From NCBI GenBank assembly GCA_965219995.1, contig CBDCOX010000002.1, positions 2,080,001 through 2,144,000 of the forward strand: a DNA stretch of 64,000 bases. The letters run 5' to 3'. The position numbers were made by a program, and so were the translations under genes. Positions 60,128-63,900 of this stretch are shown in pieces. Under the pieces are notes generated by a model. That model did no database searches. It was not told the DNA's origin and was given only the letters and a program-made list of their open reading frames with translations. Position 1 is the stretch's first letter; every line of letters starts with the position of its first letter. The DNA comes from Candidatus Latescibacterota bacterium. Lineage in GTDB: Bacteria; Latescibacterota; UBA2968; GCA-2709665.

Positions 60128-60178
60128 GTAAATAAAAGGCGCGGGGCCCGCCGCGCGCCATTATTGTACGAGGAGATC

Positions 60179-60652
60179 ATGCCTGTGAAATACTGGCTGA
60201 TGAAGTGCGAACTCAACGAATGCAGCTTCGACGACCTGAAGCACAACCGGCCCGACAGCACGGGAAAGTGGCGCGGCGTGCGCAACTATCAGGCGCGAAA
60301 TTTCATCCGTGACGACATGCGGACGGGCGACGTCGTCCTGTTCTACCAGTCCAACTGCGACGAACCCGGTATCGCCGGCCTTGCTGAGATCGTTCGGGCG
60401 GCCTATCCCGACCCCTCGGCCTTCGACCCGGAAAGCAACTATTACGACGACAAGTCCACGCCTGACGATCCCCGATGGTTCTCGGTGGACGTGAAATGGA
60501 AAAAGGCCTTCGAGACGTACGTACATCTCAAAGACCTTAAGGCGAACCCCAAACTGGAAAAAATGCTTGTTGTTCGCAGGGGTCAGCGGCTGTCCATCCA
60601 GCCCGTCAAGAAAAGAGAGTTCGACATCGTCTGTGAAATGGGCGGGATCTGA
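60179..60652 (+). CDS. EVE domain protein
   Basis: YWLMK.E, W.GVRNYQARN, YPDPSAFDP...YYDDKS, RLSIQPV. Confidence 0.92.
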   Translation: MPVKYWLMKCELNECSFDDLKHNRPDSTGKWRGVRNYQARNFIRDDMRTGDVVLFYQSNCDEPGIAGLAEIVRAAYPDPSAFDPESNYYDDKSTPDDPRWFSVDVKWKKAFETYVHLKDLKANPKLEKMLVVRRGQRLSIQPVKKREFDIVCEMGGI

Positions 60653-60720
60653 TCCTCCGTACCCCCTGTTGTTTAATCCGCCTGCCCGTCCGCGCAACCC
60701 GTTTACACGACACAATCCGA

Positions 60721-61554
60721 TCAAGGCGCCTCGGGAACTTCCACCGGCAGGTCCAGCCGGTCGCCCCATTCCTTCCACGACCCGATATAGTTGCGCACAT
60801 TCTCATATCCCAGCAGGCGCAACGCCAGGTACGAATGGGAGGAACGGTACCCCCCCTGTCAGTAACACGCCACCGTCTGCTCCGGCATCACGCCCGCCCG
60901 TTCGTACATCGCACGCAGCTGTGCCGCCGGCTTGAACGCGCCCGACGCGTCCAGGTTGTTCAGGTACTCGATATGCACGGCATCGGGCAAAGCGCCGGCC
61001 CGGGCAGAGCGCGCCACCCGCCCGTAATATTCATCGCCGCTGCGCGTATCCAGCGGCACGAAATCCGTGCGTCCGAGCGAATCCCGAATCTCCTCGTAGC
61101 CGATATGGCGCCCCGCCACCGGTGAGGCCTCGAATGTGGCCGCATCCGGGACCGCGACCTCCCGCGTCGTCGCATATCCCGCCGCCCTCCAGGCCCCCAG
61201 CCCGCCATCCAGCACATGTACGTCCGTGTGTCCCAGATATTCGCAGATCCAGAAACCGCGCGCCGCCCGCATCCCCGAGTCGTTCTCGTAAAACACCACC
61301 GTGGCATCGGAGCCGATCCCCCGGCTTCCCATTAAGTACGACAGGGTCCACATGAAAGCCTCGAAAGCCTCCTGTCCGGTGTTGTTCAGACTGATTCCGT
61401 AGAGGTCCAGGTGCAGCGCACCGGGAATATGCCCCGATGTGTATTCGTGGGTGGGCCGGACGTCCACGATGCACGTCGCTCCGTCGTGGAGGCGACCCTG
61501 CAACTGCCGCGGCGTCATCAACAGATCAGAATTTGCATATCCCTTTTGATCCAT
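60721..61554 (-). CDS. Two-domain rhodanese/sulfurtransferase (SseA type) with in-frame UGA at the catalytic position (probable selenocysteine)
   Basis: [19 protein letters not shown]; ...VACY-UGA(60859-60861)[32 protein letters not shown], true stop at 60721-60723. Confidence 0.85.
60798..60837 (-). promoter_or_regulatory. Candidate bacterial SECIS hairpin
   Basis: Hand-folded: CAUUC/GAAUG, GUACCU/GGG(A)UAU, GGC(G)/(C)GCC with apical GUUG; starts 22 nt after the UGA. Confidence 0.4.
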
Positions 61555-62636
61555 CACCGTCCCTCCTGCTCGAAGTAGGCATCGATTTCAATGCATCGCC
61601 CGCCCTGCCGGGCGGAATCCCATCCGGCCAGGACCGGCGCCAAGGAATACAGACCATCGTGATAATCGTTCAGGATACCCCCGGGGCGGCCCGAACGCAC
61701 GGCCTCCACGAAGACCCGGTCCTGCTCGAACCATGGGTCGAAATCCCGATCCCGATAGACCGTCTCGCCGTTCAAGTCGATTCGATCGTAATTGAATATC
61801 TCCATCCGCCCGCCCTCGAAGAAAAACGTGAACCACGGCTGCGGCGTTCCCGACGGGTCCGCCCGCACAAACGTCATCGTCATCGTCGCGCCGTTGTCCA
61901 TCAGGAAGTGGAATGACGACGAAAGCGGTTCGCTGAAGACGTCGGACTTTTCACAATAAAACGCCTGGACGCTCTCAACCTCCAATCCGGTCATAAACCG
62001 GGTGTAATCCACGGCGTGCACGCCCCAATCGAGCGCCGGACCTCCCGACTTGCCCATCTGGTACCACCACGACGTCCGGTCCTTCCGCGACTTCAACCGG
62101 GGCAGCCCCCCCACGGACCGAAACACCGCGTGTACGATCCGCTTCTCCGACAGAATGCGCCGCGCCTCCTGGAACAGCGGCCGATACCGTTCCCGAAAAC
62201 AGACCGTGCTCAACACGCCCGCCTCCCGAATCGCCCGGTCGATTTCCAGAGCCACGGCCATCCGAAGGGCCTGCGGCTTTTCGCTGAACAGATGAATCCC
62301 CCGGCGCACGGCCTCGATTTCGACGTCCGTGCGCGCAAAGGCCGGCACGACCGAAAAGAGCACGTCGAACCGCTCGTTCTCGACCATTTCGCGCCCGTCG
62401 GCATAGACCGCCGGTATGTCAAAGCGCTCTGCCGTACGACTCAGGGCCTCCGCGTCCACGTCGCATGCCGCCACGACGTCAACGCCCAGTTTTTTCAGGT
62501 TCGGAATATGGGTCTGGTTCGCCCATGACCCTGTGCCGTAAATCGCGGCGCGGACCGGCCTTCCGGAAGTCCTCGCCGAATCCGTCGGCAGGTCGTTGTC
62601 TTCCGGTCTCCCTGCCACGTCCCTACCCACTGGCAA
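61554..62636 (-). CDS. Gfo/Idh/MocA family oxidoreductase
   Basis: AIYGTGSWA, LFSEKP, DWGVHAVD; start uncertain (GTG 62618 also possible). Confidence 0.88.
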   Translation of the reverse strand: MPVGRDVAGRPEDNDLPTDSARTSGRPVRAAIYGTGSWANQTHIPNLKKLGVDVVAACDVDAEALSRTAERFDIPAVYADGREMVENERFDVLFSVVPAFARTDVEIEAVRRGIHLFSEKPQALRMAVALEIDRAIREAGVLSTVCFRERYRPLFQEARRILSEKRIVHAVFRSVGGLPRLKSRKDRTSWWYQMGKSGGPALDWGVHAVDYTRFMTGLEVESVQAFYCEKSDVFSEPLSSSFHFLMDNGATMTMTFVRADPSGTPQPWFTFFFEGGRMEIFNYDRIDLNGETVYRDRDFDPWFEQDRVFVEAVRSGRPGGILNDYHDGLYSLAPVLAGWDSARQGGRCIEIDAYFEQEGR

Positions 62637-63900
62637 GCGACTCCGCCGTCTGTACTATGGTTTGCTCCTCACCCTGGAATCTGGCCGGTTCACCATAATA
62701 GGGGTACGCGTTGGGCTCGTACCCGCCCTCCTCGTAGTGCCGGTCGGTACAAAGGTATCCGATCTCGTCGTTCGCGTATCCCACCGGCCACACATCGTCG
62801 GCGTCCACCATCCCCCTCAGCCGTTTCTCGATCGCGTGACCGATCTCCTGTACCGGCTCGCCGGGTATGGAAACGCAAGCCAGCGGACCCACCGCCATCA
62901 ACTGCATCTCCGTCGCGCGGCTGTCGGGAATGCCGCCGTTCTCGATCATCTCCAAGACGCTGTTCGCCCACGGTCCCGTCAGCAGGCGGCCTCTTGCGCT
63001 TTCGTCGTCCGCCATCTCTCGCAGTTTCTCAATCGGATCGTGCTCGCCGAATGAAATCTGTACGTCGGATCGCCGTGCGCTCAATTGCGAGGACCGCCGG
63101 GTCTTCAGGCTGCCGGCCACGCGTACCACCTCCCGCCCCAACTCCTCCCCGCACGCATCGAGTTCAGCCTTGCTGGCCGACTTGAAGCGCGCGGTGTCCG
63201 GGTCCACCACGGCCGGTCGGATATTGCCGAAGCACCCCGCCAGATACAAGGCTTTGCAACCCATGGACTCTTCAATTACCCTGCGGGCGATTCCGGCATA
63301 GTCCGGCGAAATATAGCCTTCGGACCCGCTCTTTGTCGTGGTATGGCAGGAGTAGTGAAACAGCACCGCCAGCGGCGCCCCATCCTCGGCTTCCACGAGA
63401 AGAACGCGGGCGCGCCGGTCCACGATACCGCCGAAATTCAACGTCATGCCGGAGGCGCCGGGCAATGGCCTGCGGCAGATATTGAAATGCGCCGAACCGC
63501 AGCCCACTCCGAACCGGACCGGCCTCAAATCCGCCGCCGCCCGCGCGATGCTGTCCGCGGTTGCGATCTCGATCATTTCCAGCCATCCGTCGGGCGGTTC
63601 CATGCCCAGCGCCGGCAGCGTGGCGGGCGCCGAGTGCGTGTGGCTGCATGCCAGCATCACGTGATCGCCCGGGATGCCGCACGCCGCGGTCACCCGCGCC
63701 CGGATCCGGTCGGTCGTCTCCTTTGCCACGCCGATGACGTCCAGGGTCGCGATCGCCGTCCTCGTCTCCCCTTCCTCGAACACGATCGCGCGGACTTCCA
63801 GCGGATACAGCACCGAATGGGACGGATTCGAGCTCCAATGCCCCTGAAGTACGGGACCCGGCTCAGGCGTAATATCTGCCGTCGCGACACCGCTTTTCAT
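62623..63900 (-). CDS. Neutral/alkaline ceramidase-like hydrolase
   Basis: GVATADITP, CSHTHSAP, HYSCH, ISPDYAG, IPGEP, GYANDEIGY, EGGYE; AGGAG RBS. Confidence 0.78.
   Translation of the reverse strand: MKSGVATADITPEPGPVLQGHWSSNPSHSVLYPLEVRAIVFEEGETRTAIATLDVIGVAKETTDRIRARVTAACGIPGDHVMLACSHTHSAPATLPALGMEPPDGWLEMIEIATADSIARAAADLRPVRFGVGCGSAHFNICRRPLPGASGMTLNFGGIVDRRARVLLVEAEDGAPLAVLFHYSCHTTTKSGSEGYISPDYAGIARRVIEESMGCKALYLAGCFGNIRPAVVDPDTARFKSASKAELDACGEELGREVVRVAGSLKTRRSSQLSARRSDVQISFGEHDPIEKLREMADDESARGRLLTGPWANSVLEMIENGGIPDSRATEMQLMAVGPLACVSIPGEPVQEIGHAIEKRLRGMVDADDVWPVGYANDEIGYLCTDRHYEEGGYEPNAYPYYGEPARFQGEEQTIVQTAESLASG

Follow-up and report, generated by a model that had tools for sequence, protein, structure and literature searches.

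Does an in-frame TGA that falls exactly on the catalytic cysteine of a bacterial rhodanese encode selenocysteine (Sec), and if so, which signal in the messenger directs its decoding? The question is raised by a gene on the minus strand of a 64,000-nucleotide stretch of DNA from a Candidatus Latescibacterota bacterium (contig CBDCOX010000002.1, positions 2,080,001 to 2,144,000), the whole of which is called the window here. The comparisons described below point, with a probability of about 85%, to a functional selenoprotein gene, predicted to encode a 277-residue tandem-domain rhodanese (RhdA/COG2897-like) in which the catalytic residue 232 would be Sec inserted at UGA. It is almost certain that the internal UGA specifies selenocysteine as the catalytic residue, and the recoding signal is probably a conserved long-range fold that differs from the standard bacterial insertion signal. 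The gene comprises the following features, the RNA being numbered from the U of UGA as nucleotide 1 (window coordinate = 60862 - n).

60721..61554, minus strand: Sec-rhodanese gene, 277 codons and a stop, with two rhodanese domains; orthologs align over the full length across the TGA
60859..60861, minus strand: UGA codon 232, predicted to specify selenocysteine where homologs have the catalytic Cys (nt 1-3 of the RNA numbering)
60721..60723, minus strand: true stop codon TGA of the Sec-rhodanese gene
61562..61567, minus strand: Shine-Dalgarno sequence AGGAGG, 7 nt 5' of the rhodanese ATG, within the end of the upstream gene

The frame hidden behind the TGA, first proposed in a sequence-only reading of this locus, was recovered in full. 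Starting from the ATG at 61554-61552, it runs through ...TVACY to the TGA, continues with CAG GGG GGG TAC CGT and remains open for 45 codons up to the TGA stop at 60723-60721, giving 277 amino acids with an in-frame TGA at codon 232. The Pfam model PF00581 recognizes two rhodanese stretches in the read-through product (E 4.3e-34), which has the two domains and the length (about 270-300 residues) of the RhdA/SseA (COG2897) type and aligns over its full length with the PDB structures 1E0C, 8K55, 1UAR, and 3HZU. Codon 232 stands opposite the loop Cys of 1E0C, 8K55, and 1UAR, that is, at the catalytic nucleophile, with Sec in place of Cys. The proposal that the UGA sits on the catalytic cysteine is thus borne out by the HMMER alignment to RhdA, in which the loop Cys matched by codon 232 is presumably the catalytic Cys230. 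Among the aligned Cys homologs, the active-site loop, U-Q-G-G-Y-R in the window protein, does not vary.

Two details of the sequence-only reading that concern the protein had to be revised. The loop had been assigned to enzymes of the SseA/3-mercaptopyruvate sulfurtransferase (3-MST) kind, in which the active-site motif is CG[ST]GVT; the window protein has QGGYR in its RhdA-like loop U-Q-G-G-Y-R, and the NCBIfam 3-MST model (SseA, PRK11493) gives 99.2 bits against a cut-off of 250. Since the best structure match is 1E0C and the 3-MST score falls below the cut-off, the protein is RhdA-like and not a 3-MST. A CxU motif had also been pointed out, and the window protein does read C-Y-U, but the Cys at -2 occurs in 26 of the 50 Sec forms of the phylum and is Pro in the other 24; CxU is not a family feature. 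In public protein collections, close orthologs are stored as a 231-aa "rhodanese-like domain-containing protein" (e.g., P0002, P0003, P0006, and P0011). Full-length public matches of about 271-303 aa, with a query coverage of 96-100%, carry the name "thiosulfate/3-mercaptopyruvate sulfurtransferase", and position 232 is Cys in all 13 aligned full-length public homologs.

The genes for Sec synthesis and insertion that were looked for in the genome, selA, selB, selC, and selD, are all present on the same 5.4-Mb contig (G000:C2) as the window. A single cluster on the minus strand at about 1.80 Mb (G000:C2:1802582-1806100; loci L001, L007, and L018) comprises selA (559 bits), selB (367 bits), and tRNA-Sec (73 bits, anticodon TCA, UCA in the RNA), and selD (360 bits) lies at G000:C2:2652925-2653848 (locus L014), each of them outside the window. 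SelD is itself a selenoprotein, with an in-frame TGA in ...RTCG[U]AAK and a selenocysteine insertion sequence (SECIS) of textbook form, in which a stem of 7 bp carries a GGUC loop that begins at a distance of 21 nt from the U of UGA. TGA is also the ordinary stop of both the rhodanese gene and the gene upstream of it, which indicates that the genetic code has not been reassigned. A scan of the genome for further TGA-interrupted genes, based on GC content at third codon positions (GC3), returned 14 candidates that resemble adjacent genes in the same frame, and it missed the rhodanese gene.

The rhodanese gene was found in all 40 of the nearest relatives; records of the relatives are labelled Candidatus Latescibacterota bacterium, with a few Gemmatimonadota. 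Among 168 genomes of the phylum (threshold E <= 1e-60), an ortholog occurs in 55, all in three families of one class, with 21 of 21, 30 of 31, and 3 of 3 genomes in these families (f1 to f3), 0 of 76 in a fourth (f4), and none in the remaining families. Codon 232 is TGA in 50 of the 55 phylum loci and TGC or TGT in five (genomes G016, G020, G036, G077, and G078), so that both forms are found at the same codon with TGA prevailing. A selA gene is present in 131 of the 168 phylum genomes, including all five with the Cys form and 48 of the 50 with the Sec form; the two Sec-form genomes lacking a selA match are 80% and 91% complete. The next nearest orthologs in the species collection, with 54-61% identity, belong mostly to Candidatus Poribacteria and in one case to Nitrospinota, and the best 80 loci of that collection have TGA 76 times and Cys four times at codon 232. 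The recurrence of TGA at exactly the same codon in 50 of 55 phylum orthologs and in 76 of the 80 best loci of the species collection shows that it is not due to chance.

Compared with 32 loci of other families, the tail beyond the UGA differs by about 21 synonymous and about five non-synonymous changes, corresponding to a non-synonymous rate (dN) of 0.056, a synonymous rate (dS) of 1.41, and a ratio of 0.04, with a ratio of 0.20 for the 40 codons preceding the UGA. Invariant rhodanese C-terminal motifs lie within this tail, and the matches to orthologs extend past the UGA to residues 275-277. The 45-codon tail is under strong purifying selection, and the decay that a dead reading frame would show is absent. 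Contigs from three DNA runs of other studies (X5-X7; two sponge metagenomes and one coral metagenome) span the TGA and show no difference at it among the 40 listed of 61 differences. Taken together, the features by which selenoproteins are usually recognized were found here, that is, a UGA aligned with Cys, coding conservation beyond the UGA, and selA, selB, selC, and selD, with the exception of a canonical SECIS. The machinery, the TGA and Cys orthologs, the conserved tail, and the independent assemblies therefore support the central proposal of a hidden selenoprotein rhodanese. One ortholog, L080 (G031:C241:5467-6284), matches in two pieces that overlap at about residues 181-186, with the TGA in the second piece, which reflects either a frameshift or an assembly error.

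The missing SECIS is where the locus departs from expectation. In the consensus bacterial SECIS (E. coli fdhF type), the apical loop lies 16-37 nt past the UGA and has a G in its first two positions, as summarized in a 2026 review (PMC13188914). Local hairpins at or near this distance were considered and rejected. The hairpin put forward in the sequence-only reading, 22-61 nt downstream (nt 28-59), does form when the first 60 nt of the RNA, numbered as above and taken from the window sequence, are folded to minimum energy, but its pairing over 45 distinct sequences of the Sec form does not exceed that of shuffles (83.9% of cells paired, 415 of 500 shuffles as good). A hairpin directly past the UGA (nt 6-12 with 19-25) fared no better (83.8% paired, 391 of 500 shuffles as good). 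A search of Rfam over 60600-61000 returned only a chance match to MS2 (E 3.9).

A different structure, which extends over most of the tail, was found to be conserved. Its elements are as follows.

60836..60847, minus strand: 5' strand of helix L1, nt 15-26, starting 11 nt past the UGA; synonymous covariation at 18/93 and 21/90
60766..60777, minus strand: 3' strand of helix L1, nt 85-96, the long-range partner of nt 15-26
60790..60823, minus strand: inner hairpin H2, nt 39-45 with 66-72, in the loop of L1, based on pair counts
60743..60761, minus strand: distal hairpin H3, nt 101-106 with 114-119, with the 7-nt loop UGGAnYU; candidate SelB-binding element

A blind scan for compatible helices listed 15-22/89-96 and 101-106/114-119, and RNAalifold, applied to 45 distinct sequences, returned L1 as 15-27/84-96, a short inner helix 43-45/66-68, and H3 as 101-106/114-119. 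L1, the inner helix, and H3 are also part of the minimum-energy fold of the 126-nt RNA of the gene in the window, in which nt 15-96 form one long irregular hairpin. In the 45 Latescibacterota sequences, 99.0% of the cells of L1 and H3 are paired, compared with 94.6% in shuffles (none of 500 as good) and 36-53% in controls with slid partners. In four pairs both bases are exchanged, for the most part synonymously at third codon positions: 18/93 (CG 30, UA 14; Arg CGC/CGU with Glu GAG/GAA), 21/90 (UA 22, CG 21; Ser UCU/UCC with Lys AAA/AAG), 102/118 (CG 41, UA 3), and 103/117 (CG 37, AU 6; Arg CGG/AGG with Pro CCG/CCU). The same picture emerged from an independent test on 62 further distinct sequences, most of them from Poribacteria, which had no part in the derivation of the structure, with 99.1% of cells paired against 96.8% in shuffles (0 of 500 as good) and again four covarying pairs, including 102/118 (CG 46, UA 16).

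The inner hairpin H2 is less regular. It is paired in 89.2% of cells, which none of 500 shuffles (81.2%) matched, and 39/72 and 45/66 covary; the pair 42/69 is broken in 18 of the 45 sequences, and the apical loop is 20 nt long and variable. At third codon positions, paired sites have an entropy of 0.44 bits and unpaired sites 1.25 bits. Within the H3 loop, nucleotide 108 is G in all 107 sequences, at the fourfold-degenerate third position of a Leu CUG codon.

Whether this fold is tied to Sec or merely follows from the protein sequence was addressed with Cys forms as a control. Genes on metagenome contigs were fetched by the pattern Y-C-Q-G-G-Y-R-S (at least 120 loci); 97 Cys forms among the matches listed, 89 of them distinct, were in the same ungapped register. 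The two groups compare as follows.

Sec forms (107 distinct): mean of 10.88 out of 11 L1 pairs and 5.96 out of 6 H3 pairs; at least 10 L1 pairs together with all 6 H3 pairs in 104 of 107
Cys forms (89 distinct among the matches listed): mean of 8.06 out of 11 L1 pairs and 3.42 out of 6 H3 pairs; at least 10 L1 pairs together with all 6 H3 pairs in 0 of 89

Nine Cys forms among the matches listed have the identical peptide DRLDLP in the H3 region, form only 2-5 of the 6 H3 pairs, and use Leu and Arg codons never used by Sec forms. As these Cys forms lack a full H3 despite an identical peptide, the fold is not a by-product of the protein sequence. Cys forms from the phylum of the window (L087, L093, and L105) retain 8-10 of 11 L1 pairs and 3 of 6 H3 pairs. 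A Sec-specific covarying structure composed of L1, inner helices, and H3 accordingly spans nt 15-119, nearly the whole coding tail. Another Cys-form ortholog, L110 (1501-2325; an unclassified metagenome-assembled genome, MAG), has 11 of 11 L1 pairs and 5 of 6 H3 pairs and looks like a recent switch from Sec to Cys in which the RNA fold may not yet have been lost.

On balance, the likelier mode of decoding is one in which H3, and not a local hairpin, would recruit SelB carrying Sec-tRNA-Sec, with L1 bridging the distance. H3 (nt 101-119, loop UGGA...) lies about 100 nt downstream of the UGA. L1, starting 11 nt past the UGA, would fold away about 70 nt of coding sequence and act as a bridge, so that along the folded RNA the H3 loop would lie about 21 nt from the UGA (11 nt, a 4-nt linker, and the 6-bp stem). 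Because of this bridge, a loop that is 103 nt away along the chain would come inside the consensus range of 16-37 nt along the fold. One SelB would then serve both the ordinary SECIS of SelD and the distant H3 of the rhodanese. Odds slightly better than even can be given to the more general statement that the family carries a natural "bridged" bacterial SECIS, in which a SelB hairpin about 100 nt away is brought to canonical distance by a long-range helix; a full-text literature search found no description of such a natural element. If this is true, almost the whole 45-codon tail would double as protein code and recoding signal, and the class would escape programs that require the hairpin to lie 16-37 nt past the UGA. 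As for the enzyme itself, homology to the RhdA type would lead one to expect nucleophilic attack of the selenolate on a sulfane-sulfur donor, for example thiosulfate or a persulfide, after which the U-Q-G-G-Y-R loop would hold the sulfur as a Se-S intermediate and then hand it to an acceptor. Cys rhodaneses follow this ping-pong scheme as well; here the nucleophile would be stronger.

Other explanations of the UGA and of the fold have to be weighed against these data. It is barely credible that the UGA is a real stop, yielding a 231-residue protein without a catalytic loop and leaving the downstream frame as a remnant. The 231-aa orthologs in public collections would agree with it, but they are automatic gene calls, and a ratio of 0.04 in a tail with invariant rhodanese C-terminal motifs, a TGA that recurs at a single codon in 50 and 76 genomes with Cys as its sole alternative, and the loss of the entire active-site loop in a truncated protein all speak for translation through the codon. 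Such read-through per se would also explain the conserved tail if the UGA stood for one of the standard amino acids, whether a near-cognate tRNA inserted Trp or Cys or the code were altered. This too is very improbable: nothing specific favors it, TGA is an ordinary stop for this gene and its upstream neighbor, the Sec machinery is complete and includes a Sec-containing SelD, Cys is the sole alternative residue in orthologs at the position of the catalytic nucleophile, and a Sec-form-specific RNA fold goes with the TGA. A less remote, though still unlikely, explanation accepts Sec but assigns the signal elsewhere, with SelB using the hairpin at nt 6-25 or the apex of the rod at nt 15-96, and the conserved fold doing something else, such as slowing the ribosome or stabilizing the mRNA. 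The G-rich hairpin directly after the UGA in the window, the single long irregular hairpin that nt 15-96 form in the minimum-energy structure, and the covariation within H2 are in its favor. However, the proximal hairpin does no better than shuffles and has its loop 9 nt from the UGA, within the mRNA channel of the ribosome, and the apical loop of H2 is long and variable. L1 and H3, in contrast, are kept in 104 of 107 Sec forms and in 0 of 89 Cys forms among the matches listed, and their restriction to Sec forms, together with an invariant G108 at a fourfold-degenerate site, fits a Sec-specific protein-binding loop.

A further alternative concerns the substrate and not the decoding. The enzyme might handle selenium instead of sulfur, with residue 232 delivering Se to selenophosphate synthetase or detoxifying selenite. 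Rhodanese can bind selenium as perselenide, and there is a weak partial NCBIfam match (70.8 bits, cut-off 200) to ExtH, a rhodanese-like protein from an operon for selenite/tellurite reduction. Such a role appears improbable, given that no selenium-metabolism gene is found among the conserved neighbors, that selD and selA/B/C are hundreds of kb distant, that five Cys orthologs do the same job in genomes retaining selA, and that the best structural relatives are thiosulfate sulfurtransferases. Several points nonetheless count against a selenoprotein decoded through H3 and L1, which remains the preferred explanation. Sec insertion is predicted from sequence and RNA comparison, and we infer both the binding of SelB by H3 and the role of L1 as a distance bridge. 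No hairpin of the consensus model was found 16-37 nt from the UGA, and one SelB would have to read two quite different arrangements, given that SelD has a classic GGUC loop at +21. Folding energies are ordinary relative to shuffles (z 0.28 for 91 nt and -0.57 for 126 nt), a measure that is uninformative in this GC-rich coding sequence, so that the structure rests on covariation and not on stability; the covarying cells are inherited within clades, and independent covariation events are therefore far fewer than the cell counts. The Cys control comes mostly from more distant lineages, and the DNA pattern used to select it fixes nt 1-20. The gene neighborhood of the rhodanese is not conserved. 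Finally, the sole contig from an RNA library (metatranscriptome run X18; window 60677-60948, 90-95% alike) bridges the UGA with 1-nt gaps at 60704 and 60773; it comes from a relative, may contain an assembly error, and could derive from DNA carry-over, so it is not counted as evidence of transcription.

The surroundings of the gene contain two further genes on the same strand.

61554..62636, minus strand: upstream Gfo/Idh/MocA oxidoreductase gene, whose stop (61556-61554) overlaps the rhodanese ATG; a neighbor in the genus of the window only
62623..63900, minus strand: ceramidase-like gene (PF04734, E 1e-9), the first of the same-strand cluster; a neighbor in the genus of the window only

The sequence-only reading had drawn attention to this context and to translational coupling through a TGATG overlap. 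The overlap is real, but the Gfo and ceramidase-like neighbors are confined to the genus of the window, in which 13 of 15 loci have a full-length Gfo match, and neither gene occurs in any of 40 loci of other genera. Even within the genus the three-gene arrangement is unstable, since in two of its species Gfo has shrunk to a match of 59 aa (L032) or is missing (L034). Being found in this genus alone, the two neighbors are no guide to function. The open reading frame listings of eight other loci, on which no family search was run, showed no shared partner. Downstream, an EVE-domain gene (window 60164-60652, plus strand; PF01878, E 2.5e-51) is convergent to the rhodanese gene and, unlike the upstream genes, holds its position in several genera (g1, g4, g5, and g10). 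Near-identical sequence to window 60650-61650 (at least half of the sampled words) was present in eight runs from five studies of sponge, coral, and marine metagenomes, and the organism appears to be associated with marine invertebrates.

The consequences for annotation and for the biochemistry of Sec are direct. The 231-residue public records remove the active site, and metabolic reconstructions from MAGs of Latescibacterota and Poribacteria therefore lose an enzyme. With 50 Sec and five Cys orthologs, and selA retained in all five Cys-form genomes, the two forms are directly comparable, and their comparison could show what Sec adds to a sulfur-carrier nucleophile. The conserved fold breaks the distance rule of SECIS search programs, and it offers a concrete candidate for the "distinct classes" of bacterial SECIS that, according to the 2026 review (PMC13188914), must exist.

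Among known systems, the closest is a family of selenoproteins predicted from environmental sequences. The Sargasso Sea analysis of 2005 counted a "rhodanese-related sulfurtransferase" (COG2897), with 3 sequences, among the selenoprotein families that it newly predicted (PMC1088965, selenoprotein tables), and the Global Ocean Sampling (GOS) study of 2008 gave Sec families of the rhodanese/sulfurtransferase type under cd01449, COG0607, and COG2897 (PMC2398784, selenoprotein tables). The family is kept under "Predicted" in the table of a 2022 review (PMC9312934), and the corresponding section of the 2026 review distinguishes five rhodanese forms, "form 4" being PF00581 with the motif UxxG (PMC13188914). 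These tables agree with the earlier remark that Sec rhodaneses have been predicted and are barely characterized; in the parts of these surveys and reviews that were available, no experimental characterization of the COG2897 Sec family was found. The window protein shares with this predicted family the PF00581 domain, Sec in place of the catalytic Cys, the two-domain SseA type, a marine origin, and a description from sequence only. U232-Q-G-G235 fits the UxxG of form 4, an identity that rests on domain type and motif. The rhodanese described here is an additional member of the selenoprotein family predicted since 2005, mis-annotated as truncated. It differs in coming from a lineage that the family tables do not list, as neither Latescibacterota nor Poribacteria are mentioned in the available parts of the two reviews (PMC9312934 and PMC13188914), which likewise describe no SECIS for the COG2897 Sec family.

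The best solved relative is RhdA of Azotobacter vinelandii (1E0C, a thiosulfate:cyanide sulfurtransferase; E 1.1e-39, residues 6-272 aligned to 4-270). Both proteins have the two-domain layout and a six-residue loop that starts with C/U-Q and ends with R, whereas RhdA has Cys where the window protein has Sec, and its loop reads hCQTHHRS instead of y[U]QGGYRS. Another Sec-containing rhodanese domain, rhodanese_LYCAU (NCBIfam NF041203, "form 3", CxU), resembles the window protein in that the latter happens to read C-Y-U. However, the model matches only its last 45 residues with 39.3 bits (cut-off 115), the family is single-domain with 126 positions, and 24 of the 50 Sec forms in the phylum of the window have Pro instead of Cys at -2.

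With regard to the signal, 11 unpaired nucleotides separate the UGA from the first helix, a spacing reminiscent of that in E. coli. H3 resembles the consensus SECIS in its 6-bp stem, its 7-nt loop, and the G at loop positions 2 and 3 (consensus as summarized in PMC13188914); it differs in that its loop begins 103 nt past the UGA and comes into range only via L1. An arrangement of this kind has a precedent by design: in 2005, Su, Li, and Gladyshev (Nucleic Acids Res 33:2486) reportedly found that an engineered distant SECIS in the 3' untranslated region supports Sec insertion in E. coli provided that base pairing places it near the UGA. To our knowledge, demonstrations of the bridging principle have so far been limited to engineered constructs. 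The construct of Su et al. 2005 is artificial, whereas the rhodanese fold is natural, lies wholly within coding sequence, and is conserved in at least two phyla.

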